From the IMG/VR virus record IMGVR_UViG_3300009702_000024: a stretch of 20,000 bases of DNA; one strand, written 5' to 3'. How positions within the stretch are numbered: the first letter of the stretch is position 1; each line of letters begins with the position of its first letter. The stretch is from an uncultured virus (IMG/VR IMGVR_UViG_3300009702_000024) (lineage: Duplodnaviria; Heunggongvirae; Uroviricota; Caudoviricetes). Positions 1-19,919 of the stretch are shown here, piece by piece. The notes below the pieces were generated by a model. The model ran no database searches, was not told the origin of the DNA, and was given only the letters and a program-made list of their open reading frames with translations. The position numbers were made by a program, and so were the translations under genes.

Positions 1-1231
1 CTGAAGGTCTAGCTACATAGAAGTTACTCGTCTTATCTCTTAGTAATTGACATCCGGGCGGTCTTCGTGGATTTGTTTGTGTTGGTACTACAAAGACATT
101 CATATTTCTTTCTAACTCGTAATAATTGTTTGGTGCGTTGTCCTCTTCGTCATTCATAGCAAAACGTATGAAGAGAGCTATCTCTTCAAGTGTGAAATTT
201 TTATGAAGAAGATAACGAGATATGAGTACTCTATTCCAGTGCTGAGGTGTGTTCTTGACAAACGCTCGTTTAATGCACGGTGGAGTTTCTTCAACATCTC
301 CAGTCAATTTCTCTTTGATAGAAAGGATAATATTTTTCTGATGAACATCCAGTGTTTCAAATGGCAGTGGTACATTGAGTGTTACATATTCACGCACATA
401 CTTACTCTTATCTATCGTCTGAATTGACTGTGTGTCTACAAGCACATCGCCAGTTTTCAGCACATCGATAGTTTCATACGGTATATTGAAATCAATAATC
501 TTACAATACTGTAATTCAGTGTTTCTTATACTTGCTTTTATGTCAATGACAGTGGGATCTTTTCTTGTGAACAGAATTGGAGCACATATGTAAATATTTG
601 GCATGATTTTTGTGTAGGGAGAATAAGGCATTCTAAACACATGAACTCCTTTTTTCATGATCATGTGCCGATCTATAACAACTTCAAGCTTGTGCTCATC
701 AACAGTTATCCAGCGAGTAATTCCTCTTTTGTAGTCGTGCCAATCTTCACAGTATGTGTCTACTTTATGGTTCTTTTGGCATTTATTCACTATCTTCCAC
801 ACTTTTTTGTACAAATTAGCTTTGGATATATTTGGAAATATTTTACGTACCATATAGCCACCTTTTCCACTCAAATAACAGAAGAAATTAGGATCTTTGT
901 CAAGAATACTTTGCATTGCTGTCAATGCAGTTTTCAATTGTAAGTGTCGTAATTTAGAATTTGTTAGTACCATACGAGTATTGTTAGAAGGGTAAATATC
1001 CATATCAAACACGAACATAGTATGATCCTTTCCCTCCACAGATCGAAATGCGGAAGTATTTAGAGTGAAATTAGCACTGTCAGTTTTCCACGATTTATCT
1101 GTGAATTTCTCGTGACCTTTCCCATCGGGAATAGCATTCACATAATTTACAGCGTTTCTAAGTAACTGTTGAGTACCATCCAATTTCATAGCTTGTTTGA
1201 CAATGTGATAAAGTTTTGATCCTTCGACCAT
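1..1231 (-). CDS. Fused primase: archaeo-eukaryotic primase (PriS-like) catalytic domain plus PriL-like C-terminal domain; 3' end runs off the window (>=410 aa)
   Basis: Not in the ORF track. Manual translation from ATG at 1231 is open to the window edge: MVEGSKLYHIVKQ...TMFVFDMDIYP (motif I hhhDhD, ~998-1016)...FCYLSGKGGYMV (motif II-like)...EVVIDRH...HVFRMPYSPY (motif III and RxPxS)...TPPCIKRAF..QHWNRVLISRYLLHKNFTLEEIALF...RRPPGCQLLR (PriL-CTD pattern). A TATA-like element lies ~25 nt upstream. Confidence 0.85.
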   Translation of the reverse strand, partial: MVEGSKLYHIVKQAMKLDGTQQLLRNAVNYVNAIPDGKGHEKFTDKSWKTDSANFTLNTSAFRSVEGKDHTMFVFDMDIYPSNNTRMVLTNSKLRHLQLKTALTAMQSILDKDPNFFCYLSGKGGYMVRKIFPNISKANLYKKVWKIVNKCQKNHKVDTYCEDWHDYKRGITRWITVDEHKLEVVIDRHMIMKKGVHVFRMPYSPYTKIMPNIYICAPILFTRKDPTVIDIKASIRNTELQYCKIIDFNIPYETIDVLKTGDVLVDTQSIQTIDKSKYVREYVTLNVPLPFETLDVHQKNIILSIKEKLTGDVEETPPCIKRAFVKNTPQHWNRVLISRYLLHKNFTLEEIALFIRFAMNDEEDNAPNNYYELERNMNVFVVPTQTNPRRPPGCQLLRDKTSNFYVARPS

Positions 1232-1251
1232 ATACTTCTTTTAGAGTAACC

Positions 1252-1268
1252 AAAATATATATGTTTTT
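1252..1268 (-). promoter_or_regulatory. Archaeal TATA-box promoter of the primase gene (leaderless spacing)
   Basis: Minus strand reads AAAAACATATATATTTT, with the TATA-like element ~23-31 nt upstream of ATG 1231. Confidence 0.55.
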
Positions 1269-1377
1269 GTAGCCACTAATAAAATTAGTAGTAAATAGAA
1301 CTTTTTGATAGTACTATACTACAATTGAACTATTGTGAAAGAAAACAATAAATGCATTTGATAGTAAACAATAAAAA

Positions 1378-1443
1378 TAGTAACCTTTATAATGGGTGAA
1401 ATCTAAAGAAATATGCTACCGGAATGGTAGATCAGAAAGGTGA
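1378..1443 (+). promoter_or_regulatory. TATA box (TTTATAA, 1386-1392) and archaeal-type SD (AAGGTGA, 1437-1443)
   Basis: Seen directly. The SD lies 4 nt before ATG 1448, which supports MSEEQ as the start. Confidence 0.6.
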
Positions 1444-1447
1444 CAAC

Positions 1448-2599
1448 ATGTCAGAAGAACAAGATCAAGTTAAAAAAGAGATCCCAAAAGAAGAGACTCT
1501 TTTTCTGAAAAATACATCATTTGATGAATTGAAATCTACAACAATCAATTTATTTAATGATGCCGAAACTGCACTTCTCACGAGAGAAGCTAACAGAGAT
1601 ACATTGGACAAGATAATTAAAAATTATCTATCAAATCAACTGTTCCATAATTATAGTATTGATAAAGTTATTCCAGCCATCAGAGATCAGTTCAAAAGAG
1701 AAGCACTGAGCGGATCAATTTCTACACTTCTATATGTCGGAGGTGCTGATTTTCTTGAGTCGTCAAGACAAAATCCAAGAAGACAGTCAGCACTTTTTAT
1801 TCATGTGAAGGATGGACAGCTCGATCCAAATGGAGAACCCGGTTCTGGTGGTTTCTTCGACACATATGTTTGGGGATCCACACCACGAGAGAATGTGTCA
1901 GACAGATTTGAAGCTGGATCATCTTACGATTTGAAAATTACTGAAACTCTATCTCAAAGACAAGATGGGACACCAGTAACCTATTACAACATTAAAGATT
2001 ATCGTTACATTAAAGACGAAAGTGAAAATTTGGTAAAAATATTGGAAGAGACACCAACCCTAAATAAATTGCTCAGAGAAAATCTTGGTGAAACTGGAAC
2101 TTTCACACAAGAGTACATGGAAATTCTTAGGAGTAGTGCATCTTTTTCATTCGTTGCTCTTAAAATGCGTATTACTACAGTGTACTCTCACCGTCAAGGA
2201 GAACGAGTACAAGAAAATGGAAAGTGGGTGAATGTTTTCAAAGATGACTCTCCATATCGATCAGTCGTTCAAAAGGATGATAGACTGGATAAGCGGTATC
2301 CATCGTTTAGTCTCAGTGGATATAGCAATATTGGTCAAGATAGATCAATTAGAGTTTTAGCTGGATTTTATCCACAGACATTAGGTCAGTTCTTTATCCA
2401 TTCTGACACCGTTCAAGCTCTTATAGATGATCCATCATTCTTGAAAGAGACTCCAGAACACCAGTCACAGTTCATGTCTGTGACTTTGAGTGGTAAAGAA
2501 TTCCTTATTGTTGGAAAACTAAAAGGTAATTTGAATGCTTCAGCTGACGAGAAGACATTGAATGTTGGACTCACAGCTATAGCTTTGATAGAGCTTTAA
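1448..2599 (+). CDS. Hypothetical protein, possibly an OB-fold ssDNA-binding/recombination protein
   Basis: Long ORF (track start 1424; the SD favours 1448). Beta-rich aromatic segments (FFDTYVWG...FEAGSSYDLKI...TYYNIKDY; FSLSG...IRVLAGFY...GKEFLIVGKL) resemble OB folds. It sits between the primase and the RecA-like ATPase. The CDS is secure; the product is tentative. Confidence 0.6.
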   Translation: MSEEQDQVKKEIPKEETLFLKNTSFDELKSTTINLFNDAETALLTREANRDTLDKIIKNYLSNQLFHNYSIDKVIPAIRDQFKREALSGSISTLLYVGGADFLESSRQNPRRQSALFIHVKDGQLDPNGEPGSGGFFDTYVWGSTPRENVSDRFEAGSSYDLKITETLSQRQDGTPVTYYNIKDYRYIKDESENLVKILEETPTLNKLLRENLGETGTFTQEYMEILRSSASFSFVALKMRITTVYSHRQGERVQENGKWVNVFKDDSPYRSVVQKDDRLDKRYPSFSLSGYSNIGQDRSIRVLAGFYPQTLGQFFIHSDTVQALIDDPSFLKETPEHQSQFMSVTLSGKEFLIVGKLKGNLNASADEKTLNVGLTAIALIEL

Positions 2600-2616: not shown

Positions 2617-2850
2617 ATGGATTTCGATATGAAGACTATATCAAAACAAAAAAAGTTGATTGATGATATGCTTGTAAATATTCATTCCAATTCATCCTTC
2701 TCGCATTTAATGTACACGAAGAACCCATATCGAAGTATTCTCGATCACGTGTATTCTCTTGGTGAAGATTTTTCTGATGTCCATGAAGCTATGAGTAAAC
2801 ATCGCATGTATACAGAGATTAAATTAAAACGAGTGAGAGCACAGAGATGA
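2617..2850 (+). CDS. Hypothetical protein (77 aa)
   Basis: ORF fills the gap in the operon; AAGGAG upstream at ~2599-2604. Confidence 0.65.
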   Translation: MDFDMKTISKQKKLIDDMLVNIHSNSSFSHLMYTKNPYRSILDHVYSLGEDFSDVHEAMSKHRMYTEIKLKRVRAQR

Positions 2851-2854
2851 GATA

Positions 2855-3670
2855 ATGCTAGGAAGCAACAAAAATTCTACCAAATCTATGGATCTGTTGG
2901 CAATGACAAGTCATGTTTCAGATAATGCATTGCATTCATTCATATTCATTTATGGCAAAGAAGGTAGTTCTACAACGACATTAGCTTACTCTATTTTGGG
3001 AGCAATCCCGAAAGACAAAAAGCTTTATGTCATTCTCACCGAACCACCTCATAACTCAACAGCACCTCTTTTAAAGCATTTTCCAGAGTATGCTGTTGAT
3101 GAACGAGTAATCTTCCCATCTAAAGACAATATTGTCCATCCTATTTCAAATAGACAACAGTTCCAATATTTTGTTTCACAAATTCTTTTAAAAGACGATG
3201 TGGGAGCAATACTGTTCGATGCTATTGACAGTTTACGGTTCATTCTCTACAATTATTATCTCAGCTCAAATACCAGTAATACACTCAAAGCTTGGGGGAA
3301 AGCTGATGATGATATAAATAGCAGTCTCATTCGTTTCGTGTCACTTCCTATTCCAAAAATTGTCATTATGAAAGAGAAAGCTGAGACAATTGTTGGAAAG
3401 GACAGTATGGGTAAAATGAAATTTGAGAAAACTGGAAATATAGTTCCAGCATTCAATTCTGAAAAAGTTCAACGGTGGGCTTCTATGAGATTTCATACAT
3501 TGAAAATCGGTGAGTATGAAGTTGTAAAAACGAAAGGTAATGTTAAAGTTGGTGAGAAATTTCGTTTTGGATTTGATATTCAGAAACGACAGACCGGTGT
3601 ATGGTTACCAGAAATGCTCAAGAAAATGCAAGTTTTATCTCCAAAAAGGATGACATTGGACAGTAAATAA
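2855..3670 (+). CDS. RecA-superfamily (Sak4/AAA_24/RadB-like) P-loop protein with degenerate Walker A
   Basis: IFIYGKEGSSTTTLAYS (Walker A position, GKT replaced by STT), LYVILTE (RecA-type Glu), ILFDAIDSL (Walker B), KIVIMKEK strand. Confidence 0.7.
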   Translation: MLGSNKNSTKSMDLLAMTSHVSDNALHSFIFIYGKEGSSTTTLAYSILGAIPKDKKLYVILTEPPHNSTAPLLKHFPEYAVDERVIFPSKDNIVHPISNRQQFQYFVSQILLKDDVGAILFDAIDSLRFILYNYYLSSNTSNTLKAWGKADDDINSSLIRFVSLPIPKIVIMKEKAETIVGKDSMGKMKFEKTGNIVPAFNSEKVQRWASMRFHTLKIGEYEVVKTKGNVKVGEKFRFGFDIQKRQTGVWLPEMLKKMQVLSPKRMTLDSK

Positions 3671-3674
3671 ATTA

Positions 3675-4298
3675 TTACTGTGTAGTATCATATTCAATTG
3701 GTTTATATTTTAATTTTTTAAACAATAACTTTTTTCGAGTTTTACTTCCATTAAATCTGATAAATCTGTGTTTGCGTGGTCGTTCAATTTGGTATAATCT
3801 ACTTCCATATTCTTCTTTTAATTCTTTTAATGTCTTACCTCTGAAAATATTTCGAGAGTGATTTAGACTGTCTTTAAGTCGCCACTCTTTATGCTTGTCA
3901 CTCAATCCGGTGTAAATGAATGACAGTGCTTTGTAAACAGTTCCTTTATGTCCTATTGATGTATCAGCATAGGAGACGATAATATCCTTGTCAGTTATCT
4001 GTTTTAGTAACTTGAATGTCCTTGAGACGAACCAGCTTTCTGTATTTTTTGGTGTAATATCTTCGATGAATAATCTAGTGAGTTCAATCACTCTTGAACT
4101 TTCTTCTTTTCCAGCTATCCCTTTACATAAAGCTGGAGATGCTGGTTTTCCATAAATACACACACCTATCAGTTCACTCTCATCAAAAAGACCGAACGAG
4201 AATACAGTAGAACATTTTCTTTTTAGATAATGTCGTTCTTTTTGCCAATTGTTTGCAATAGTATTTTTTATCTGTTTTACAATGTAACTATCTTTCAC
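3675..4298 (-). CDS. Mom-family GNAT DNA (adenine) modification enzyme
   Basis: HYL...FGLF...LIGVCIYGKPA...IELTRL...PKNTESWFVSR...IVSYADTSIGHKGTVYKALSFIYTG...KHRF matches the phage Mu Mom family pattern. Likely start is GTG at 4298, with a TATA-like TTTTATTA at ~4319-4327; the track start is 4346. Confidence 0.85.
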   Translation of the reverse strand: MKDSYIVKQIKNTIANNWQKERHYLKRKCSTVFSFGLFDESELIGVCIYGKPASPALCKGIAGKEESSRVIELTRLFIEDITPKNTESWFVSRTFKLLKQITDKDIIVSYADTSIGHKGTVYKALSFIYTGLSDKHKEWRLKDSLNHSRNIFRGKTLKELKEEYGSRLYQIERPRKHRFIRFNGSKTRKKLLFKKLKYKPIEYDTTQ

Positions 4299-4398
4299 AA
4301 TACAAAATAGATAACAGCTAATAAAAATATTATTACTTGTAAGCATACGAATGTATTAGCAAGGACAAGTTTTAATTATCTAAAAAGTATTGTACTGT

Positions 4399-4728
4399 AT
4401 GGACAATTCAGATGATAAAAATGTGGAATATTTAGATATGGTGGATCGTAAAAATCTTCTCAATCGACTGATTAATGGTGTATCTCCAGAACTATTAGAA
4501 GAAGAGTACTGTGTGAATATACCAAATGTCGTCACAGCTTACTATTCTTGTCCACATTGTCAAAAAGATTTTCCTATCAAGCTTATTACGCAAGACATAT
4601 CACGTAATACACGTTTTGTCAGATGCCCTAATTGTCGCACTAAATCATTTATTACCACATTACAGAAATCCACCAATGTCGTCACACGGAAACGAGCGAC
4701 AATCGATGATTTTTTCACAAACGAATGA
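4399..4728 (+). CDS. Zinc-ribbon protein
   Basis: CPHC...CPNC pairs; ATG at 4399 lies ~20 nt after TTTTAATTAT. Confidence 0.75.
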   Translation: MDNSDDKNVEYLDMVDRKNLLNRLINGVSPELLEEEYCVNIPNVVTAYYSCPHCQKDFPIKLITQDISRNTRFVRCPNCRTKSFITTLQKSTNVVTRKRATIDDFFTNE

Positions 4729-5944: not shown

Positions 5945-6295
5945 ATGAGTAGCATGAGATGGAAATCTCTACCAGCTCCTTTTGAACATTATCGAATATA
6001 CGAGAATGGGAAGGTGGTGAACACCAGATACAAAAGAAATGGTTGCTACAGAGAATTGAAATCTATTCTCAATAAAAATGGTTATTGGTATATCGTGGCT
6101 TCAAATAATAAGCAAAGAAAAGCTTTTTTCATTCATCGTCTTATGTATACGGCATTCATTGGAGATATACCAGATGGATTTCAAATAAACCACCGAAATG
6201 ATAAATCTGATGATAATAGAATTGAAAATTTAGAACTGGTTTCTCAGAAGAAGAATTTAGAATATCGCTGGAAAAAGAGGCATAAAATTGAATAA
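5945..6295 (+). CDS. HNH homing-type endonuclease (NUMOD4-like N-terminus plus HNH_3)
   Basis: WKSLP..FEHYRIYENGKV...NKNGY...IHRLMYTAFIGDIPDGFQINHRNDKSDDNRIENLELVSQKKN; SD GGAGGT at ~5929-5934. Confidence 0.9.
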   Translation: MSSMRWKSLPAPFEHYRIYENGKVVNTRYKRNGCYRELKSILNKNGYWYIVASNNKQRKAFFIHRLMYTAFIGDIPDGFQINHRNDKSDDNRIENLELVSQKKNLEYRWKKRHKIE

Positions 6296-7858: not shown

Positions 7859-8042
7859 AATAGAACAAGATGGAGAATACTCTACTCTAACAGCACCGAG
7901 AAATTTCTTCCCGCTCGTCTGTATGCTCCTTGAAAATTTGACTGACGAGGATCTAGACAAATGGATAAATGACCATTATCCCATCACAAAGGATAGTATC
8001 CATGAAATTAGAAATGAAATAAGGAGGAATTTCTTTGATTAA
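7851..8042 (+). CDS. Hypothetical protein (63 aa)
   Basis: SD GAGGT upstream; overlaps neighbours in operon fashion. Confidence 0.6.
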   Translation: MIRIEQDGEYSTLTAPRNFFPLVCMLLENLTDEDLDKWINDHYPITKDSIHEIRNEIRRNFFD

Positions 8043-8526
8043 TAATCGAGATATACCATATATTAGACGGTTAGAGGATATTCGACAATTCTCTGAAAAA
8101 TATCTAAACATAAAACTTAATACGTTTCAACTGGAATTCTTGAGAGAAGACTATAAGATGAGACTGATGGGAAAGACTACCGCTGCAATCGTAGAGACAA
8201 TGTGGAAAGCTTATAATATGCCTCCTAATTCTCATCTGTACTTTGTGACTCACACTCGTGATATGAGTCAGAGAGCACTCAAATCAACAATCGAAATATT
8301 GACTAAAGCAAATCAGAAATATTTGAAATACAATTATGTGAATAATATTTTAGTGCTTGAAAATACAGTGACCATTCATTTCATATGGATAGACGACATA
8401 AAGGATGTCGTGTCAGATATGAAAGACAGTATTATTAAAAACGTTACAAGCATTAAATTCTATGAACGTAGAGGATTTAGTAGAGCAAGAGAAGATTATA
8501 CATTTGATCTTGATCAAATGTTCTAG
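8035..8526 (+). CDS. Terminase-large-subunit ATPase-like protein (N-terminal part, Walker A retained)
   Basis: FSEKYLNIKLNTFQLEFL...RLMGKTT resembles the adenine-binding Q motif and the RxxGKT Walker A of large terminases; no nuclease domain; TTG start with AGGAGG SD. Confidence 0.6.
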   Translation: MINNRDIPYIRRLEDIRQFSEKYLNIKLNTFQLEFLREDYKMRLMGKTTAAIVETMWKAYNMPPNSHLYFVTHTRDMSQRALKSTIEILTKANQKYLKYNYVNNILVLENTVTIHFIWIDDIKDVVSDMKDSIIKNVTSIKFYERRGFSRAREDYTFDLDQMF

Positions 8527-8540
8527 GAGAAATATAAAAC

Positions 8541-8918
8541 ATGAAAGATACGACAGAAAAAGAATTGGAAGAAATTACAACTTTGCTGGTGAAAGCTATA
8601 TGGGAGTCTTTTAGGATGCCTCCTCATTCTCACATTGCTTATTTGATAAATAATCCAAATACGAAAACTGTAATAATTAAAATGACAAAAATCTTGGATA
8701 TTGCAGACGTAGGTTACTCGGAATACGATTTGAAAGAAAGTACTTTGACACTCAAAAATACTGTGACCATCCACCTTATGCCAATGTCCGGTTTAATTTC
8801 AGAAATGTCTGCTACAAAGAAAACAGAGATAAGAGAAAAGAAAACTATCGAACCACATGTAATATGTATAGATGAACAAGCTTATTCTAGTAAACAAATA
8901 GGGAGGTGGAATATATGA
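8541..8918 (+). CDS. Paralog of the preceding gene; Walker B-like motif present, Walker A absent
   Basis: IWESFRMPPHSHIAYL vs MWKAYNMPPNSHLYFV; LTLKNTVTIHLM vs LVLENTVTIHFI; C-terminal HVICIDEQAY. Confidence 0.65.
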   Translation: MKDTTEKELEEITTLLVKAIWESFRMPPHSHIAYLINNPNTKTVIIKMTKILDIADVGYSEYDLKESTLTLKNTVTIHLMPMSGLISEMSATKKTEIREKKTIEPHVICIDEQAYSSKQIGRWNI

Positions 8919-9121
8919 TTGAAGACAAAACTCTAATAGAAGAAAAACGAAAATTCGTGGAGTATTTGAAAAAGCACGTAAAGGATGAGGATCATATTAC
9001 TTCTAAAGAAATATCAGAAATAATAGAAAATTATCAGAACACAAGAGTGAGTGAATATCGTATTGTAGGATTAGACAGAATATACAAAATAATTGGAGAT
9101 GTGAAATATGATGAAAAATGA
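8906..9121 (+). CDS. Hypothetical protein
   Basis: SD GGAGGTG at ~8902-8908 favours the ATG at ~8915; operonic overlaps. Confidence 0.6.
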   Translation: MEYMIEDKTLIEEKRKFVEYLKKHVKDEDHITSKEISEIIENYQNTRVSEYRIVGLDRIYKIIGDVKYDEK

Positions 9122-10487
9122 GAAAAAGATGACGGTAAAAGAGTATCTTCAATCGCTGGACTGGACACTGAAATACGCAGACATGAAAGAGAATACTCAC
9201 AATATTCACACATACCCAGCTCGTATGCCACCATTACTTGTAAGAAGGATCATAAAAAATTTGTCTATGAAAGACGACACTGTTCTAGATCCATTCATGG
9301 GATCGGGAACTGTTACACTAGAAGCATTCATCAATAAGAGGAGAAGTATTGGTATAGATGTCAATCCTCTTGCTGTGAAAATAGCTCGAATAAAATCAAC
9401 AATTGTTGATCCACAGAAGATCCAAGAGGAATTTATGAGAGTGTTGAAAAACGCTAATTCTGATCTCTCAAAGAAAAAAGATGCTTACAGAATTAAATTC
9501 CTTGCATATAAAAAGTCTTTATCGTGGAAGACAATAAAGTGGTTAAATTACTGGTTTCTTGATTATGTGCAACTTCAACTATTTGGTCTGAAAGAGGTTA
9601 TCAAACGAATAAGAAATGAAGAAATTAGAGAATTCTTTCAAATTATCTTATCTGATACTTCTAGATGGGTATCAAACAATCGAAACAGCTCATACAAAAA
9701 TTATAAAATGAGCGAAGAGCAAATGAAAAAGTTTGAACCTAAAGTATTTCAAACTTTTAATCTTCTCTACAGTCAAGCCATTATCAGTATGCACAAACTT
9801 ATAGATAATGTGATAGGAGAATACTCACCAGTCTTCTCACATAAATTCTTCCTCAAATTAGTTAAGGAGAAAACGAGTGGATACACTCCAAAAATTCTCA
9901 ATGAAAATTTTCTTGACACAGATATAAAACCTAAATCAGTTGATCTTATCCTCACAAGTCCCCCATATGGTGATAATGGGACAACAGTGGCTTACGGTCA
10001 ATTCTCAAAATTCTCTCTTTTCTGGTTAGGTTACGATCCTCTTACTGGAGCAAAGATTGACAGAGAAGGATTAGGAGGAAGAAAACTGTATGACACGGAG
10101 ATGATATATTCTCCGCATTTCTATATAATCAAGAAAAAGATTAAGGAGAACGAGAAAGAGATGAAAAATAATACTCGTCACATTGATTTTCATCTCTTCT
10201 TTCAAGAGTATCAGAAATCTATTGAGAAAATGGCGATGTGTATTAAGAACAATAAATATATATGTCTGGTTGTTGGAAATCGCTCTGTTAGAGGTGTGAG
10301 AGTTCCTATGGATCTTATAAGTGTAGAAATAGCAAGGCAGTATGGTCTTGAGCATTATTTAACTCTAAATCGAGATATTTCAAGTAAACGACATCCTATA
10401 TCACAAAAGATGAAAATAAATGACAAATCTACAAAAATTAACAATATAAATAGAGAAACCATTGTCATCTTGAAGAAAACTGGTTGA
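9108..10487 (+). CDS. DNA N4-cytosine methyltransferase, alpha class, M.MvaI-like
   Basis: Motif X HNIHTYPARMPP; motif I VLDPFMGSGT precedes motif IV LILTSPPYGDNGTTVAYGQFS; VVGNRSV. The TSPPYGD..TTVAYGQFS string is what I recall as typical of the MvaI-like family. Confidence 0.9.
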   Translation: MMKNEKKMTVKEYLQSLDWTLKYADMKENTHNIHTYPARMPPLLVRRIIKNLSMKDDTVLDPFMGSGTVTLEAFINKRRSIGIDVNPLAVKIARIKSTIVDPQKIQEEFMRVLKNANSDLSKKKDAYRIKFLAYKKSLSWKTIKWLNYWFLDYVQLQLFGLKEVIKRIRNEEIREFFQIILSDTSRWVSNNRNSSYKNYKMSEEQMKKFEPKVFQTFNLLYSQAIISMHKLIDNVIGEYSPVFSHKFFLKLVKEKTSGYTPKILNENFLDTDIKPKSVDLILTSPPYGDNGTTVAYGQFSKFSLFWLGYDPLTGAKIDREGLGGRKLYDTEMIYSPHFYIIKKKIKENEKEMKNNTRHIDFHLFFQEYQKSIEKMAMCIKNNKYICLVVGNRSVRGVRVPMDLISVEIARQYGLEHYLTLNRDISSKRHPISQKMKINDKSTKINNINRETIVILKKTG

Positions 10488-11309: not shown

Positions 11310-12959
11310 ATGCAAGATAGTAAAATTTATGACGATTTTGTACTAATATATGGAGACGCATTCAAATATGTTAGAGGGATACCCAGAAAAAGTATAAAAT
11401 TGATTATGACATCGCCACCTTACAACATTGGAAAAGAGTATGAGAAGAAGAAGAAATTCGATGACTACTTATACGATATGCAGAAATTGATTGAGAATTT
11501 AAAGAACGTTCTTAGAGATGATGGTATTGTAGTATGGCAAGTAGGCAATTACATTGAGAGACGAAGTAATGTGACAGAAATATTTCCTCTAGATTATTAC
11601 TTCACAGATATATTCATCTCTGCTGGTTTCAGATTTCTGGAGCGTGTCGTGTGGAGGTTTGGACACGGATTAAATGCCACGAAGAAATTTTCGGGAAGAT
11701 ATGAAACTTTGCTGGTCTTCTGTAAAGCAGACTACCTTCCTAAGCATCAAATTAGAAGATACAATGACATACCCAATGAGCTGAAAAGTAAAATTGTCAT
11801 GAATTCATGGATTGAAAAAATTTGGAACATTCCAAACGTGAAATCCAATCATGTTGAGAAATATAAACATCCGTGCCAATTTCCAATAGAGTTGGTTGAA
11901 CGGGTAGTGTACGCTTACACCGAAAAGAACGATGTCGTTCTGGATCCGTTTGCTGGAGTCTCATCAACACTGATAGCTACCATAAAATGTGGTCGAAAAG
12001 CTATTGGTATCGAAATAGACATGAAATATATAAAAATTAGTAAAGAGAGGCATATCAAATTTCTCAACAATAAATTGAAGATACGAGAAATGCGAGATCA
12101 AAAAGAAATTCCAATTACAAAAGGGAAGACCAGCATCATTCCCAAAGAATTTGATCTCTATTGGAGAGAGAAAAAGAGGGAAGAGAAAGAGTTTATTCTC
12201 AAAAATCTTGCAAAATTTGACAAAAATAGTGGGGATATTCCACTCCATATAATTCGGCAAAAATTATTAAAAACTCTCAAATCAAAAACTTATAGTCTTA
12301 TTTTCGTTGACCTCCTTGAGTGTTTTAATGAAACACGGTGGTATGATATTATGAATACTATAGTGGAAAATTCACTGATGAAAAACAATGGTAATTTTCT
12401 CATACTCGTAGATGGAAGACGGTTCATTGAAAGAGAAACTTATAAAAAATTCAAGGAATTTACATCCACGAAATTCAAACTTAGAGGAAGAGTGGTAATT
12501 GATGGAGGGAATTACACTGACACTTCATACTTAATGCTTCTGTGGTTCACAGCATCAGAGACATATCTATGGGATCTAGATAATCTAAGAATTCCTCAGA
12601 AATATCCCGGAAAGACTCATTATAGTGGGAAGAAGAAAGGGACAATTTCTGGCAATAAACGTGGAAAGAACCCATCTAATTATTGGGGAACTGAGACACT
12701 TAATTTCCACAAGAAATTATATCACACGAACTCCACTGACACGGTATATGAGATGGTTGTCAAAGGCTTCTCTTCTACTGGAGACTCTATTCTACTAATG
12801 AACTATGGCAGAGATGGTCATAAGATGGTAAAATATGCTCTTGCACGAGGACGCAAGGTCGTTGAAGTCATTCCAGAGTATCAAGAATACATGGTAAATG
12901 CAAGGAAAAGAACGAATTTTGACGACATAAAAGAAGCATTTTCCAAATATACACTATAA
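11310..12959 (+). CDS. Beta-class DNA amino-methyltransferase (BglII/BstYI-like, probably m4C) fused to a second, catalytically degenerate MTase domain
   Basis: N-half: IMTSPPYNIGKEYE, WQVGNY, WRFGHGL..KFSGRYETL, IPNVKSNHVEK..HPCQFP, VLDPFAGVSST. C-half repeats the fold: LIFVDLLE (for DPPY/SPPY), LMKNNGNF, LLWFT..YLWDLDNLRIPQKYPGK...GKNPSNYW, STGDSILLMNYG, RGRKVV. Confidence 0.88.
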   Translation: MQDSKIYDDFVLIYGDAFKYVRGIPRKSIKLIMTSPPYNIGKEYEKKKKFDDYLYDMQKLIENLKNVLRDDGIVVWQVGNYIERRSNVTEIFPLDYYFTDIFISAGFRFLERVVWRFGHGLNATKKFSGRYETLLVFCKADYLPKHQIRRYNDIPNELKSKIVMNSWIEKIWNIPNVKSNHVEKYKHPCQFPIELVERVVYAYTEKNDVVLDPFAGVSSTLIATIKCGRKAIGIEIDMKYIKISKERHIKFLNNKLKIREMRDQKEIPITKGKTSIIPKEFDLYWREKKREEKEFILKNLAKFDKNSGDIPLHIIRQKLLKTLKSKTYSLIFVDLLECFNETRWYDIMNTIVENSLMKNNGNFLILVDGRRFIERETYKKFKEFTSTKFKLRGRVVIDGGNYTDTSYLMLLWFTASETYLWDLDNLRIPQKYPGKTHYSGKKKGTISGNKRGKNPSNYWGTETLNFHKKLYHTNSTDTVYEMVVKGFSSTGDSILLMNYGRDGHKMVKYALARGRKVVEVIPEYQEYMVNARKRTNFDDIKEAFSKYTL

Positions 12960-13611: not shown

Positions 13612-14262
13612 ATGAAGAAAGTGAAGATATTTCCAGCACTTACTTTCTGCTCATTTGGGGAATGCAGAAATCGTATAACACCACGAACAGAGAAAGAGCT
13701 GAGAAAGATGAAGGGAAGAGACGTGTTGAAAGACACCTTCTGTGACGAATGCGTTGAAAGTAAATTCACACAGAAAGGATCACCCAAAATACTGTCCCAC
13801 TGGCGGAGAAAGATAGAGAAGAAAGCGGAGACAGTGACCCGTATCATCTACGGTGACGAGATTGCGAAAGAACGAACTCAAGCACTCAAGACTGTGAAGT
13901 TCATTCCAACTCTGAGAAAGTACAAAAATCTTCGCACTGGAATAGTTGGTCAGTATTTTGGTAACAACAGAATAGAATTGAATGTACGTAAATGCAGTAC
14001 CGAAACCCAATTCATTTCAGTCTATGTCCACGAGATCTCCCACCATTTTGTCTTCTGGAAGAAGGAGAATAAGTCACACGGGGAAGAATTTGTTAGGTTC
14101 ATTCGAGCACTCATCCACGAGCTAGAATTTGAGATCACACACTGCCACAGAAAGAAGAACGGTGACATTCGCTGGGATGCCATCATGGACATCAAGCTAC
14201 CTCCTCGTAAGCACAGCAATTTTGCATCAATGGAGAAAATGGAGAAAATGGAGAAAGTCTAA
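13612..14262 (+). CDS. SprT-like zinc metallopeptidase with N-terminal Cys4 Zn-finger
   Basis: GQYF...IELN...VYVHEISHH...SHGEEF (HExxH plus HGxxF); CSFGEC...CDEC; promoter GAAACGTTTATATTA at 13576-13590. Confidence 0.8.
   Translation: MKKVKIFPALTFCSFGECRNRITPRTEKELRKMKGRDVLKDTFCDECVESKFTQKGSPKILSHWRRKIEKKAETVTRIIYGDEIAKERTQALKTVKFIPTLRKYKNLRTGIVGQYFGNNRIELNVRKCSTETQFISVYVHEISHHFVFWKKENKSHGEEFVRFIRALIHELEFEITHCHRKKNGDIRWDAIMDIKLPPRKHSNFASMEKMEKMEKV
14230..14256 (+). repeat. Perfect 9-bp tandem repeat x3 (ATGGAGAAA) encoding MEK-MEK-MEK
   Basis: Seen directly at the 3' end of the SprT-like gene. Confidence 0.9.
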
Positions 14263-14310: not shown

Positions 14311-15186
14311 ATGGTAATATACAACACAGAACCGCCGATACCGCCTACCAACGTGAATGGTAGAATAAACTGGACACGAACCAAGCTTGAAAACATAGCA
14401 AATTACATCGATGCTATAGAAGAAAGTTACAAAATGGGGAAGTACGGGACAGTGATAATTGAAAATCTGGAAGTTAACAATCCGCTGAATGACGATTTCG
14501 GATTTACTGTAAATCCGTTCAAAGAATGCGTTTATCTCTTCAGTACGAAGGGTACACTCTTTGATCAGATGGGACAAAAAAAACTGAATTACGGGGATTT
14601 CAATAAACTTCTAAGTAGTGTGCTGTACAAAATAGTTATAGACAACTTAAATGGTTTAACTGTCCGTTACGATTTAGCTGAGGATATGTACACATGGGAC
14701 ATCAACATGCCAACTCTTGACGGTTTTACGAAAAAACGTTTCAAGACGAGTGGACACCTCACTCGTGTGAGGATGCTGAACATAGCTTTTGGTATAACGA
14801 GCATCCACATGAGACAGAAGCAATTCATGTCAGTTCCAACTTTGGACACAATCTCACAATTGTTCCAGAGTGAGAAAATTGGTGGTCGGCACTCTGGAAG
14901 AGATGCAAAAGAAGAGCAACTTCTTCTCTATATTCTCTACACTTACGGTAAGAGTCTGGCATACAGTTACGATCTTGGACTCGACACCGCTTTTCTGGAT
15001 CTCAAACGTCACGATCTTCCACCAGAATACGTGAGAATTATATCTCGTGGAATAAGTGCAGTAAGAAAGTGCTCTTTCGTCATGGTGTACGAGGACAGCA
15101 GTTTCCACACAATAAACGTACTAGATCTTGAAAAATTAGGAGGTAACAATATTACAGTTGTTGACTGGTTTGATGGAGTGATCTAA
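14311..15186 (+). CDS. Hypothetical protein (291 aa), paralog of the next gene
   Basis: Long ORF with promoter AAAGCTTATTAA upstream; collinear similarity to 15187-16062. Confidence 0.8.
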   Translation: MVIYNTEPPIPPTNVNGRINWTRTKLENIANYIDAIEESYKMGKYGTVIIENLEVNNPLNDDFGFTVNPFKECVYLFSTKGTLFDQMGQKKLNYGDFNKLLSSVLYKIVIDNLNGLTVRYDLAEDMYTWDINMPTLDGFTKKRFKTSGHLTRVRMLNIAFGITSIHMRQKQFMSVPTLDTISQLFQSEKIGGRHSGRDAKEEQLLLYILYTYGKSLAYSYDLGLDTAFLDLKRHDLPPEYVRIISRGISAVRKCSFVMVYEDSSFHTINVLDLEKLGGNNITVVDWFDGVI

Positions 15187-16062
15187 ATGGAGTATATAGA
15201 CGATGCAAGTATCACAGAAACACTTTCCAAGATACGGAATTACCAGAAGGAGATCACGCAGACTGGAAGGAACGAGAAGTACTTCATACAAAGTTTGAAC
15301 AATCTCTCTGATGGGAGTGATAAGATAAGCCATATCAAGTTCATTACAATGTCTTCACTTTATATGGTAAAAATATTCTTGGTGTCCAATAACAACACAC
15401 TATACTTGATTGGAAATATAAGTCTCTCAAGCTTCATGAATTTTCTCGACACTACAATGAAAAAAGAGTCAAGTCCAGCTGTTCTGGTAGGAATATTCCA
15501 CTACGATGAGATACACGAGAAGCGAATTGTCTACAACAGTAAGAAAGATGTATTCTACGCATCGGCAAACTACACTGAGAGTTCTGGTATTCGGATGAAT
15601 TCTCCCCTTGAATTCGACAGCTTCGAGCTGAGAAAAACTTTGCTTCAATTGGCTATTGGCATGACCTATTCTATCCCTCGTCATCCACATCTTCCAGCAT
15701 CACTTTTCCCCACCGATGTCCGTCTTTGGAAGACCGACAATGAAACAGACAAGGAGCTTATTCTCGCTCTTCTCTACCACAATGGTAGGAGGATGCGGGA
15801 CATTGGCAAAACTTTCGATCCAGTGTACACCAAGCTCACCTTAGAGCAAATTCGAGCTGTCGGTATGGGTATGTCCGACATTGACGATACTCTACTGGTC
15901 AGTACCGAAGATGGTAGTTACATTATGCACCCATACGATCCGCTCATTGTCAATTGGAGACACATGCGTACTATGAAATGGCAGAACCTCACTCTTCCTT
16001 TCAGTGGTGAACTGAAGGATGATTTAGAAGATTACTTGAAGGACGATTTGGAGGATGATTAG
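15187..16062 (+). CDS. Hypothetical protein (291 aa), paralog of the previous gene
   Basis: Abuts the previous stop; SD GGAGTGA; acidic DDLEDYLKDDLEDD tail. Confidence 0.8.
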   Translation: MEYIDDASITETLSKIRNYQKEITQTGRNEKYFIQSLNNLSDGSDKISHIKFITMSSLYMVKIFLVSNNNTLYLIGNISLSSFMNFLDTTMKKESSPAVLVGIFHYDEIHEKRIVYNSKKDVFYASANYTESSGIRMNSPLEFDSFELRKTLLQLAIGMTYSIPRHPHLPASLFPTDVRLWKTDNETDKELILALLYHNGRRMRDIGKTFDPVYTKLTLEQIRAVGMGMSDIDDTLLVSTEDGSYIMHPYDPLIVNWRHMRTMKWQNLTLPFSGELKDDLEDYLKDDLEDD

Positions 16063-16453: not shown

Positions 16454-16647
16454 GCATGTCTGCTGAGCAATCTGCTTGGCACACTCTGAATTGCTGAGGC
16501 AAGAGAGATTTCCACATCAAACGATTTAGGACAGTGATGAAGTCCGTGCTTCGCACGGAGTGGAGTTGGTCAGAGTTGGTGAAGGGATGATCACGGATAT
16601 TTAAAGGAGTGATCTGCGGGTGTAGCGAAAACTTTTTGGTTACGCTC

Positions 16648-16677
16648 ATTCTGTATTAGTAATAACTAATACAGAAT
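16648..16677. repeat. Perfect inverted repeat, 13-bp arms, 4-nt loop
   Basis: ATTCTGTATTAGT-AATA-ACTAATACAGAAT. Confidence 0.9.
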
Positions 16678-16887
16678 TAACAATAGAAGAAAAATACAAG
16701 TAGTTGCGTACCCAAAAAAAAGCTCTAGTGGTCATCTGATTGAAGTAGATTGACTGTGGAAGGGTTTAAGGTAGGTAAAATATGTGTTTTCCTACGATTT
16801 TCAAAAAGTGGAACGGAAATGCACTGTAATAAAATGTCTGGAGTTCCGGTACTATTTTGATACACATATCATTATAGAACACCTTCT

Positions 16888-16902
16888 TATATAAACTTTG
16901 CG
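16888..16902 (-). promoter_or_regulatory. BRE-TATA promoter (CGCAAAG-TTTATATA) with no substantial downstream ORF
   Basis: Close to archaeal consensus; followed by a 33-codon ORF (16867-16766) and a T8 tract (16721-16714). Confidence 0.55.
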
Positions 16903-17095
16903 TTTTTTTTTCGTCTTGGTACGAATTACCTTCACACCGCTTCACGGACGATATAATACGAGTTTCAAACCCGCTATGTCGTTTTACTCTATTGTACTAA
17001 AAAAATCACTTCAGCAAAACGGTAGCAGAATTGTGGTAAAAGTGGACGAATACCACCGAAAGATTTATTAATTTACTGCTTCATTACAATGTAGC

Positions 17096-17440
17096 ATGGT
17101 AGAACACAACACTAATACTGCGAAGAAAAGATATGACAGCAGACGGATAAATATCGAGTTGAATGCTGAGTTGAAGAATGTCAGAGAGTTGCAGAGAAAG
17201 ATCGAAATGCCACGTATAGGGGGATCTGCAACGAATTATTTCATGTAAGAGATTGTGAATGAAAGAGAGGAGGAGAGCAAAACTGTATCTCTGTTCAATC
17301 AACTGGGGATGTCTGGCGATGATGAAAAACTGCTTGTAAGCAGAGTTGACGGGTCTATCCGCCCTTACACTGAGATAGTTGCTATGTGGGACGACATGTT
17401 CACATCTACTTGGATGAAGCTTGAGTTGCCTACGACATAA
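17096..17440 (+). pseudogene. ~114-codon reading frame interrupted by one in-frame TAA (17246-17248)
   Basis: MVEHNTNTAKKRYDSRRINIELNAELKNVRELQRKIEMPRIGGSATNYFM*EIVNEREEESKTVSLF...LELPTT*; BRE-TATA AAAGATTTATTAA at ~17058-17071. Confidence 0.55.
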
Positions 17441-17800
17441 TTCTGCATTCTAAAATTTAAAATTCCGAGCTGCTAAGTTCCTCTAAATCTGGGAGTGTGT
17501 GGCTTTTTTGTTATCGTTTGAACAAGTTCCACGACAACAAGAAAGGTGTGTTCTGTGCGTTTGAATGGATCGGCATGAGTATTTGGTCATCTCGAAATAA
17601 TCGTGTAAAATTTCGGTGTCTGTGTGGCTGTGTGAGCATTCATGTACTACAGCAAGACAGCAGAACCGGAGAAAAAAACAGTGTAGTGAGAAAACAATGC
17701 ACACACCTACAGAACAAGGGCAGATAATACCAAAGTGAACGACATAAAACACCACTCCACAGACTTCAGAAGTGCATCTAACAACGAAGAGAGAGGACGA

Positions 17801-17870
17801 TATGACACGATATAGCACGGTATAATACGACATAACACGGTATAATACGGTATAATACGGTATAATACGG
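17801..17870 (+). repeat. Tandem array of seven 10-bp units, consensus TATAAYACGR
   Basis: tatgacacga, tatagcacgg, tataatacga, cataacacgg, tataatacgg x3; followed by ACGG-TACT-CCGT and a C7 run (17879-17885). Confidence 0.95.
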
Positions 17871-17959
17871 TACTCCGTCCCCCCCATTTATACCCCAGAT
17901 ATGTCATAGAATGGCATGTGCGGAAAATGAATATATGTAGTGTTCTACTATAGGGTAGT

Positions 17960-17974
17960 AAAGTATATATAATC
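17960..17974 (+). promoter_or_regulatory. BRE-TATA promoter AAAGTATATATAATC (copy 1)
   Basis: Identical 15-mer at 18200-18214; precedes ATG 17994. Confidence 0.75.
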
Positions 17975-17993
17975 CCTAATTCCTATACTATCT

Positions 17994-18176
17994 ATGAGAT
18001 CAAAAATAGGGAGTGAACACATAAGAATTATTTTGTGCGCTCACGGAAGAAAAAACTATTCTGAAAATCGTATGTCACAACTGGAAATTATGTCCAGTGA
18101 ATATTACTTTCAATGCGTTGACTGTGGTTTTCAAACGAAAGATGACGACACTATGATAGATCACTGCTTAAATTAA
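17994..18176 (+). CDS. Small C2H2-like zinc-finger protein
   Basis: YFQCVDCGFQTKDDDTMIDHC; start uncertain. Confidence 0.55.
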   Translation: MRSKIGSEHIRIILCAHGRKNYSENRMSQLEIMSSEYYFQCVDCGFQTKDDDTMIDHCLN

Positions 18177-18199
18177 GTGTTAATTTACTGCTAAGAGAC

Positions 18200-18214
18200 A
18201 AAGTATATATAATC
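18200..18214 (+). promoter_or_regulatory. BRE-TATA promoter AAAGTATATATAATC (copy 2)
   Basis: Identical to 17960-17974; precedes ATG 18228. Confidence 0.75.
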
Positions 18215-18227
18215 TGCAATTTCTGTA

Positions 18228-18497: not shown

Positions 18498-18740
18498 ACC
18501 TAATATTTTACATTTTACGCTATAAAATACCACAATTTTCCATTCATGGGAATAAAAGTAGGGTACTTTGAAGCAGAAGCTTTCAAAGCACGTTCTATTG
18601 TCGTTTAGGATATTAGAATTTTTTGGAGTCGAAATTTTAGAATTTTTGCGTGGAACAATATCACAACGTAGAAAGATATATATACTATTTCCACAAAGTA
18701 GTAATTGAAGCAAATCTTAAATTTGCTAGGAGTTATCAAA

Positions 18741-19919
18741 ATGAAATTCAATTTCGATACGATAAAAATGAGTTCTTCTCAATATGGGAAGGATTTTAAC
18801 AAGCAATTGCAAAATCTGGAATTGTTTGAAGAGAACATTAGCTCAGTTTCTCAGCCATTAAGTGAAACTTTGATCCAACAAGGAGTAGAGAACTATACAG
18901 TCTCTTTCTATGATCGAGACTACAAGTTATCAAGAAAAGCTATTTCAGACCTTCTTTCAAAGTCTGAGAAGAAAATATCTATCAAGTCATTTGACGAGAT
19001 AGAAGCTTTAAAAGACAATAGAGGATTAAAACTTGGTACTTTCATTCTGAATAGAGCTGCTGAAAAGACTTTTCGAATAAAGCAGAAATTCGCTCTTTAC
19101 AATGGAGAAGTTAAAGCAATTTTGAATGAGCACTTTCCAATAGAGGAAGGACTAAAGATAAATCGATTAGCTGAAAATTTAACTGATTTACTTGTCTCTT
19201 CTGGTAAAGACTATGTAAGTGATATAAGCTTCAATGAGAATACGGGTAATGTGTCTTTTGATATAATGTCGAATATCACGGAACTTGATATTGAAAATGT
19301 GAAGGTAAATGAAGAGGTAGCTTTCGGATTTAGTTTTCGAAATAATTATTACGGATCTAGAAGATTTTCGATGATAAGTTCAACCTTAAATTTGGCTTGC
19401 AGCAATGGAATGCTTAGTTCTAAAGCAATTGACAATCTCGATATTGTTCATTCTTCACGTTCCAATTTTGCGTTCAAAATTGGTGATTGGATGTATAGGA
19501 ACGTAAATTACCTTAATCTTCCAAATACTGAAAGGTCTATTCTTCAGTGGCTTAGAGCCGGTAGGTGGATCTCAAGCGATTATTCAGAAAGATTTTACAA
19601 TCTCTTTTCAAGTGTCATTCTTGACACTATGGAGAGACAAAAGAATGATAAAATAGAATTGATAAAGGCAGCATCAGCCAGATCTATCAGCGATTTATCT
19701 AAAGAGCTTGATAAGCTTCAGAAGCAATTTAAACTACCAAGATCTATTGTGTTTTCGATCGAGAACGTATATTATACAGATGATACGATAGATCAAAATA
19801 GCAAAAATGATTATTATCTTTCAATGGCTATTTCTCGTTATGCTAACGAACCATCTTTATCCTTCGAAAGAAAAGAAGAGTTACAAACAATTGCAAATCA
19901 AATATTAGTTCGAGTTTAA
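18741..19919 (+). CDS. DUF932-like protein (phage/plasmid family)
   Basis: FGFSFRNNYYGSRRFSMISSTLNLACSNGML...IVHS matches the N..G...h...hhC.NG....H pattern of DUF932. Promoter AAAGATATATATA at ~18672-18684; the AGGAG SD favours ATG 18741 over the track's TTG 18705. Confidence 0.7.
   Translation: MKFNFDTIKMSSSQYGKDFNKQLQNLELFEENISSVSQPLSETLIQQGVENYTVSFYDRDYKLSRKAISDLLSKSEKKISIKSFDEIEALKDNRGLKLGTFILNRAAEKTFRIKQKFALYNGEVKAILNEHFPIEEGLKINRLAENLTDLLVSSGKDYVSDISFNENTGNVSFDIMSNITELDIENVKVNEEVAFGFSFRNNYYGSRRFSMISSTLNLACSNGMLSSKAIDNLDIVHSSRSNFAFKIGDWMYRNVNYLNLPNTERSILQWLRAGRWISSDYSERFYNLFSSVILDTMERQKNDKIELIKAASARSISDLSKELDKLQKQFKLPRSIVFSIENVYYTDDTIDQNSKNDYYLSMAISRYANEPSLSFERKEELQTIANQILVRV

Follow-up and report, generated by a model that had tools for sequence, protein, structure and literature searches.

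A gene cut by the left edge of the window (the whole stretch of 20,000 nucleotides that was analysed) probably encodes a one-chain protein in which a predicted primase is joined to a predicted iron-sulfur PriL-like domain and to an XPD-like fold that is without the ATP-gripping lysine. The first 410 codons of this primase/PriL-CTD/XPD-like fusion gene occupy 1..1231 on the minus strand, as defined by the open frame and by its identity to a full-length homologue, P0006. One domain layout, consisting of AEP-type, PriL-CTD-like and XPD/DinG-fold parts, is common to all 33 non-redundant full-length relatives, and the invariance of the family's motifs holds across 26-45% identity. Viral primase-helicase fusions are common, but nearly all of them involve ring helicases, and SF2 cases are few in the portion of the literature survey available (PMC4889955). 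In the literature searched, no fusion was found that combines a primase with both a domain of the XPD/DinG type and the Fe-S domain of PriL. Additionally, the Walker A lysine is lost throughout the family although the other ATPase machinery is intact, which poses a sharp and cheap biochemical question, while a cellular stand-alone relative of 370 aa offers a natural minimal primase for comparison with the fused form. Its members also serve to mark an unannotated group of elements of ~60-90 kb, probably archaeal viruses.

A gene that continues beyond the window

The minus-strand frame, open over 410 codons from the ATG at 1231 to base 2, had been described in a first-pass annotation, and every motif named there was found in its place. 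FVFDMD starts at aa 73 (nt 1015), SGKGGY at aa 121 (nt 871), VID at aa 185 (nt 679) and FRMPYS at aa 199 (nt 637), followed by PPCIKR at aa 317 (nt 283), ISRYL at aa 337, FTLEEI at aa 346 and PPGCQLL at aa 391 (nt 61). P0006 is 1,114 aa long, is identical to all 410 residues encoded in the window and then continues; therefore, the end of the gene lies ~2.1 kb to the left of the window, with ~2,114 bases of the gene beyond the edge. Contigs from the sequencing runs X1, perhaps the origin of this DNA, and X2 also extend past this edge (runs X3 and X4, which gave small pieces only, were left out). Thus, the leftward extension that had been proposed does carry the gene onwards, through P0006 and the X1 and X2 contigs, though its end is not near the edge.

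Strain comparison bears on whether the frame is a real gene. Between strain X2 and the window there are at least 39 differences in the frame. Those listed touch 37 codons, of which 27 are changed synonymously and 10 are not; relative to the proportion of sites that are synonymous, this excess has a p value of 1e-11, and 12 of the 12 listed changes in aa 294-400 are synonymous. An X2-like variant, P0026, is likewise 1,114 aa in length, has 21 residues unlike P0006 and contains the ten non-synonymous X2 changes listed. The frame is a real gene under purifying selection, and it is present in a public collection as a called, unnamed protein.

Single-sequence searches with P0001, the 410-residue part, returned no Pfam, no meaningful PHROG and no PDB match, and its search among proteins of near length returned one 234-aa fragment and nothing more. 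P0001 also gave no loci among viral contigs and no relative among metagenome contigs, and a DNA pattern search for the gene found nothing. When P0001 was aligned with two viral relatives and then searched against longer proteins, P0006 and 20 relatives of 1,101-1,205 aa were obtained. The family alignment (A5) has 50 rows, 45 of which are at least 1,050 aa; 33 are left at 90% identity, the five shorter rows having been excluded. Profile searches of PDB sequences gave nothing with E <0.1, and tblastn found no match among 72,556 plasmids, with P0006 as the query, or among 50,697 phage records. The counts of family members and of stand-alone forms are both lower bounds.

Among 400 Promethearchaeota genomes searched with the profile A3, five had matches: two on virus-like contigs that also encode PolB, two that are weak fragments and one that is a stand-alone protein. 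The matches in G112 and G142, being weak C-terminal fragments, were excluded from membership. The stand-alone homologue, P0055 (370 aa; L032:1570-2682, minus strand, G127:C8), ends after the PriL-like domain and is without the helicase; its motif I reads DSE, its motif II has His and its PPC is SPYC. Its neighbours are cellular (aspartate-semialdehyde dehydrogenase, an Fe-S oxidoreductase and a Rad51-like gene), and it belongs to a cluster of five, with the source label Candidatus Helarchaeota. A true minimal form occurs in this relative and not in the window gene.

Primase, iron-sulfur and XPD-like parts

The predicted AEP (PriS-like) catalytic domain spans aa ~25-255 (467..1159, minus strand), on the evidence of its motifs, a statistically weak alignment with Asgard PriS in motif register, look-alikes in the atlas and a match of the profile A6. 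Motif I, FVFDMD (998..1015, minus strand), contributes Asp76 and Asp78, its DxD being present in 33/33 members. Motif II, SGKGGY (854..871, minus strand), has Tyr126 in place of His; SGxGxY occurs in 31/33 members and SGxGxH in the other two (L007 and L022), as well as in the stand-alone form. Since the column is His in these two relatives, Tyr126 is identified as the His substitute, such that the annotation's replacement of the motif II His by Tyr or Met holds for Tyr and not for Met, the His-bearing members being the two most divergent relatives. Motif III, VID (671..679, minus strand), has Asp187 in 33/33 and aligns to the PriS 'rID', and motif IV, FRMPYSPYTK (608..637, minus strand), has Arg200 in 33/33 along with Tyr206 in place of the second His; together, motifs III-IV align to rID...RliRlP.S of PriS. 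Archaeal PriS has a co-varying nucleotide-binding triad, H-R-H (PMC5862659 section 9). In the family, the triad is Y-R-Y in 31/33 and H-R-N in 2/33, and so the second His is replaced too. Tyr in motif II has a precedent in the PrimHYQ family, in the part of PMC5862659 available; within the AEP superfamily the motif II residue differs by family, and may be His, Gln or Tyr. What the protein holds, then, is the general AEP set, namely the motif I DxD, a motif II variant, the motif III acidic residue and the motif IV Arg; the motif II His and H-R-H triad that mark a cellular PriS are not part of it.

Comparison of the family profile with 29 Asgard PriS proteins scored 22.5% (E 9e-4), a weak match that spans motifs III-IV, and alignment A6 against PriS scored 2%, although the full-length alignment sets all motifs in register. 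There was no match to PF01896 in any family member scanned and, in one member, a match to AEP_C962R at E 0.01. The atlas look-alikes belong to the PriX, PriL, PriS or PriCT families, including a PriX-bearing cluster at 0.97, and the only outside match of the A6 profile in the 400 genomes was a PF01896 protein, a PriS paralogue. In structure searches with the full-length model, helicase matches filled all lists, so that the primase had no place and no primase was listed, and a domain-only model made from two sequences (pLDDT 36.8) was too poor for a meaningful fold search. On motif and profile evidence, the N-terminal domain is very probably an AEP. An Asgard genome (G053; L103:748-1920, minus strand) encodes a PriS paralogue of 390 aa whose C-terminal half is unrecognised, and second PF01896 matches of such kind occur in several genomes.

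Following the primase is a low-confidence and probably flexible linker, aa 261-282 (386..451, minus strand; model pLDDT <50), which leads into a PriL C-terminal-like helical domain at aa ~288-420 (1..370, minus strand, for the part within the window). This domain has Cys319, His331, Arg339 and Cys394, with PPC (Cys319) at nt 275-283 and PPGC (Cys394) at nt 50-61. The joining of PriS-like and PriL C-terminal-like parts that had been claimed is borne out by hhalign, in which aa 283-430 scored 85.5% (E 5.7e-6) against 13 Asgard PriL proteins, with a reversed control at 0.1%. PF04104 was matched by 11/21 members (best E 6.8e-7), P0006 itself having no match. From motif IV to PPC there are 115-126 residues, compared with 231-273 residues ahead of PPC in the 13 PriL proteins; thus, a PriL N-terminal domain, the loss of which had also been proposed, would not fit into this interval. 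The third Cys that had not been seen before the edge is indeed not there, yet it is not lost either, as Cys412 and a fourth, Cys415, lie two and five residues past the edge and complete the P0006 ligand set of 319, 394, 412 and 415. Cys319 is present in 33/33, and the domain has at least four Cys in 33/33. Read by eye, the third Cys sits ~12 residues past PPxC in 27/33 and within a CxxC in 6/33, and never in both places (script classing gave 25 and 5, with 3 unclassed), while the rarer CxxC form is spread over three separate clades in a quick tree. Such mutually exclusive positions, recurring across clades, fit a required metal ligand, and the domain is predicted from its sequence to carry an iron-sulfur cluster of the PriL-CTD type. 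PriX is a PriL-CTD-like bundle that is not known to have the Fe-S Cys, and the four Cys kept here do not fit that description; nor does the single chain without a PriL N-terminal domain fit the separate subunits of a cellular PriS/PriL.

The helicase-like part, aa ~441-1114, lies entirely outside the window. The P0006 model has a pLDDT of 81 and a pTM of just 0.53, and the arrangement of the domains is therefore unsure. In Foldseek, the top match of the model was XPD 8rev (E 4.3e-18), followed by DinG 9ii8, XPD 3crv and DinG 6fws. By VIA, DinG 6fws aligned over 491 residues (Z 26.7, rmsd 7.2) and eukaryotic XPD over 520-550, compared with 290-330 for other SF2 proteins (Z 20-24). On this model, the C-terminal part is predicted to have an SF2 fold of the XPD/DinG type. 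Four cysteines between Walker A and Walker B, Cys540/578/585/610, are present in 33/33, and a weak alignment places three of them opposite Cys of XPD. Walker B (DE[IV]S), motif III (TDA) and motif VI (QxxGRxK) are likewise each found in 33/33. Walker A, in contrast to that of XPD and DinG, reads K[TS]TR[AC]G[LVF]TT in 33/33, the usual catalytic Lys being present in 0/33 and replaced by Leu, Val or Phe. In an alignment to 24 Asgard XPD proteins, which is weak (12.6%; reversed, 1.2%), Leu484 falls in the Lys column and Arg481 in that of the first glycine, and GxGKT is present in 21/24 of those XPD proteins. Lys478 and Arg481 of the P-loop are invariant in the family, and no conserved Gln corresponding to a Q motif was seen upstream in the family consensus. 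Since the Walker A lysine is missing, the domain is filed as XPD/DinG-derived and not as a member. In the excerpt of PMC3270479 available, a Lys-to-Ala mutant of DinG is unable to hydrolyse ATP, the Fe-S domain is needed for unwinding, and the polarity of XPD/DinG is 5' to 3'.

Neighbouring genes and the source of the element

Gene context was counted over 12 distinct loci with a full-length gene, with flanking ORFs scanned for ~10 kb on each side. PolB lies downstream in 10/12 loci, and the contigs of the other two, L009 and L013, end within 0.1 and 2.1 kb. A second, ordinary SF2 helicase is nearby in 9/12, with GKT in the three that were read (L001, L002 and L011), and no other primase family was found among the flanking ORFs scanned. 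A Sak4/AAA_24-like gene adjoins in the window and in L001, L002, L004, L007, L008, L009, L011 and L022. The window shares with L008, L009 and L011 a divergent cassette that is made up of a 391-aa ORF, a small ORF, a Sak4-like protein and a zinc ribbon. In the window, the cassette is separated from the fusion gene by an AT-rich gap between the divergent gene starts (1232..1423), in which promoter-like sites are not above chance. The 391-aa protein (1424..2599, plus strand) has 25-27% identity to the ORF at the same position in L008, L009 and L011 and no match in Pfam or PHROG; comparison with the same-position ORFs of distant loci gave no link (0.8%), with an input that wrongly included the SF2 helicase of L017. 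From its position, we would guess that it binds single strands. Next come the small conserved ORF (2617..2850, plus strand), also present in L008, L009 and L011, and the Sak4-like single-strand annealing protein (2855..3670, plus strand; phrog_124, E 4e-7), which is 42-44% identical to those of L008, L009 and L011; the zinc-ribbon protein (4390..4728, plus strand) is a further member of the cassette.

Several other genes of the window merit mention in their own right. A Mom-like DNA modification protein (3675-4346, minus strand; PF25680, E 7e-39) lies inside the cassette on the opposite strand and has no homologue in the fetched loci. Two N6/N4 DNA methyltransferases are encoded at 9108-10487 and 11310-12959 (plus strand), the second with two matched stretches, and methyltransferase genes are near the primase gene in many relatives too. 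The adjacent ORFs at 8035-8526 and 8541-8918 (plus strand) look like paralogues by eye, the first having weak ResIII and terminase-ATPase matches, and two abutting 291-aa ORFs at 14311-15186 and 15187-16062 (plus strand) have no family match. Also on the plus strand are an HNH endonuclease (5945-6295), a SprT-like metalloprotease (13612-14262) and a protein of 404 aa that weakly matches phrog_1362 (18705-19919). A tandem repeat at 17797-17872, with a 10-base unit in ~7 copies, occupies a gene-poor stretch (~16454-18227) and could be an origin or a binding array.

No structural viral gene was identified in the window, where a Terminase_6N match is weak (E 0.026). Four relatives are on IMG/VR viral contigs, large terminase is encoded on the contigs L007 and L022, and L007 lies in a Promethearchaeota MAG. 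Judging from these relatives, the window element is in all likelihood a virus and, with a good deal less assurance given that MAG binning of viral contigs may err, one with an Asgard archaeon as its host; the source virus is probably a tailed virus of sediment archaea. When the window DNA was compared with the 400 Promethearchaeota genomes, 51 had short or methyltransferase-region matches. The one perfect 28-base match was considered as a CRISPR spacer and rejected, as it is made up of a 9-base low-complexity repeat and is not part of an array; there were no CRISPR arrays in the 8 match regions fetched, and no spacer among them links the window to a host.

The relatives' contigs have further features of note. 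A Salactin/MreB-like actin gene, with a ParA-like ATPase nearby, is present on two terminase-bearing contigs (L022:3-875 and L099:8592-9689), and viral contigs (L002:5812-6633 and L005:5052-5906) encode a response-regulator receiver domain joined to a part anchored in the membrane. LAGLIDADG inteins interrupt three genes of a single contig, those for terminase, PolB and ribonucleotide reductase (L007:1503-4226, L007:13473-18461 and L099:1924-5373). Near the replication genes of L017 (5370-5981 and 19004-21032) are a hexapeptide acyltransferase, a DegT-type aminotransferase and a Gfo/Idh oxidoreductase, which suggests sugar modification.

Proposed role and comparison with known systems

The best explanation of the fusion is that it would be the replication primase of the element, with an XPD-derived domain that continues to use ATP via a rearranged P-loop placing it on the single-stranded template; we give this account an even chance of being right, or a shade better. 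The XPD-like domain would load on the lagging-strand template and move 5' to 3', taking the tethered primase along. Two invariant residues, Lys478 and Arg481, would make up for the charge that went with the Walker A lysine. In cells, the PriL-CTD acts in primer initiation by binding the template and the initiating nucleotide. The PriL-CTD of the fusion, on its flexible linker, may do likewise, and the covalent link would make the PriL N-terminal domain unnecessary. Asp76, Asp78 and Asp187 would bind metal, Arg200 would position the nucleotide, Tyr126 and Tyr206 would replace the His pair, and PolB, a family B polymerase whose gene follows downstream in relatives, would extend the primer. Counting for this explanation, viral primases are often fused N-terminal to a replicative helicase, according to the accessible part of PMC4889955. 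Counting against it are the weak AEP (22.5% and 2%) and XPD (12.6%) profile scores, as well as the absence of the Walker A Lys in 33/33, the lack of a Q motif and the presence of a second SF2 helicase that could unwind.

These last three points sit more easily with the main rival, in which the XPD-like domain would have no ATPase activity, or would do no more than bind nucleotide, and would serve as a clamp fixing the primase to ssDNA or to a fork junction, unwinding being left to the second SF2 helicase or to a host helicase. Indeed, Leu, Val or Phe takes the place of the Walker A Lys throughout the 33 members, the Q motif is not seen in the consensus, the second helicase accompanies 9/12 loci (with GKT in L001, L002 and L011), and DinG of S. 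aureus shows the family to be able to lose unwinding after fusion (PMC3270479, in the excerpt available). Yet Walker B DE, TDA, the motif VI Gln/Arg/Lys, Lys478, Arg481 and the four Fe-S Cys are all invariant, which is seemingly beyond what a passive clamp needs, and we rate the clamp as a tentative possibility. An improbable alternative, though one that can hold together with the replication-primase account, is a restart or recombination primosome which, instead of accompanying each fork, would act where the Sak4-like annealase and the second SF2 helicase have given rise to D-loops, R-loops or stalled forks, clear these structures and then re-prime. The adjoining Sak4/AAA_24-like gene, in the window and eight relatives' loci, is in keeping with such a role, as is the dissolution of D-loops by E. 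coli DinG described in the same excerpt of PMC3270479; however, the steady linkage to PolB fits a main primase, and the ~10 kb scanned on each side of the gene held no other primase family. That the N-terminal domain is inactive or unrelated to AEP, the protein being a helicase-like DNA-binding factor, is very doubtful indeed: replacement of both His, a weak PriS profile score and the lack of a PDB sequence match would accord with it, but the three acidic residues and Arg200 are invariant and in the PriS register, canonical SGxGxH persists in two members and the stand-alone form, a PriL-CTD is fused behind, and A6, searched over 400 genomes, matches nothing outside the family but a PriS paralogue. 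Lastly, the minimal, self-contained PriS-PriL(CTD) primase of ~420 residues that had been read from the window, because its edge cut the gene, is barely credible, in that the visible domain content was correct and a 370-aa stand-alone relative exists but ~700 more residues with the XPD/DinG fold come after, the frame reaching 1,114 aa in two strains (P0006 and P0026) and 1,101-1,205 aa in the other relatives from the longer-protein search.

Returning to the replication-primase account, a bolder and rather unlikely extension is that Asgard tailed viruses have made a repair-type XPD/DinG their replicative motor, i.e. a P-loop ATPase without the Walker A lysine, with a fused primase and two 4Fe-4S clusters. 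If true, P-loop catalysis would have a further, novel solution, and a single protein would suffice to test the roles of the primase and helicase clusters, including redox hand-off along DNA. Such hand-off (charge transport) between clusters is disputed.

No description of a primase/PriL-CTD/XPD fusion was found in the literature searched, though such a protein could appear, named as a primase or helicase, in the annotation tables that accompany papers on Asgard viruses. Its parts can be set beside several known systems. Cellular archaeal and eukaryotic PriS-PriL has the same I-II-III-IV order, in register with Asgard PriS, and the same PPC...H..R..L...PPxC block; the fusion differs from it in being one chain, without the PriL N-terminal domain, with the triad Y-R-Y (31/33) and with a helicase-like domain attached. 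PriX is not known to carry an Fe-S cluster, whereas the fusion keeps four Cys and, among the profiles tested, matches PriL. Both PriX and PriCT-1/2 are structurally related to the N-subdomain of the PriL Fe-S domain in the part of PMC5862659 available. PolpTN2 of the Thermococcus plasmid pTN2 and the Nanoarchaeum equitans primase are likewise single chains that combine a PriS-like with a PriL-like part and have four Cys (PMC3973330, in the portion available), and the motif II His of PolpTN2 is replaced too, by Gln (PMC5862659, same part). However, the PriL similarity of PolpTN2 covers both PriL domains, and, as far as that portion of PMC3973330 goes, PolpTN2 has no NTP-binding motifs and is accompanied by a separate SF1 helicase. 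XPD/Rad3 and DinG (8rev, 3crv, 6fws and 9ii8) share with the fusion the predicted fold at aa ~450-1050, the four-Cys insert and motif VI QxxGR; unlike them, the fusion has a Walker A (KTTRAGLTT) without lysine, DE[IV]S instead of DE[AG]H, TDA in motif III and a primase in front. Similar in overall plan are the phage PAU gp68 (AEP-SF2) and N15/PY54 (DnaG-SF2) proteins, in which the primase is N-terminal to SF2 as in the fusion, along with the giant-virus helicase-primases, which have a similar order and include the Bodo saltans virus DEXDc helicase-primase of the BFVD match (E 7.9e-9). It is by their descriptions that these are set apart, the part of PMC4889955 available describing neither an XPD-type Fe-S helicase nor a PriL Fe-S domain for PAU gp68, N15/PY54 or the giant-virus fusions, both of which are predicted for the family presented here.
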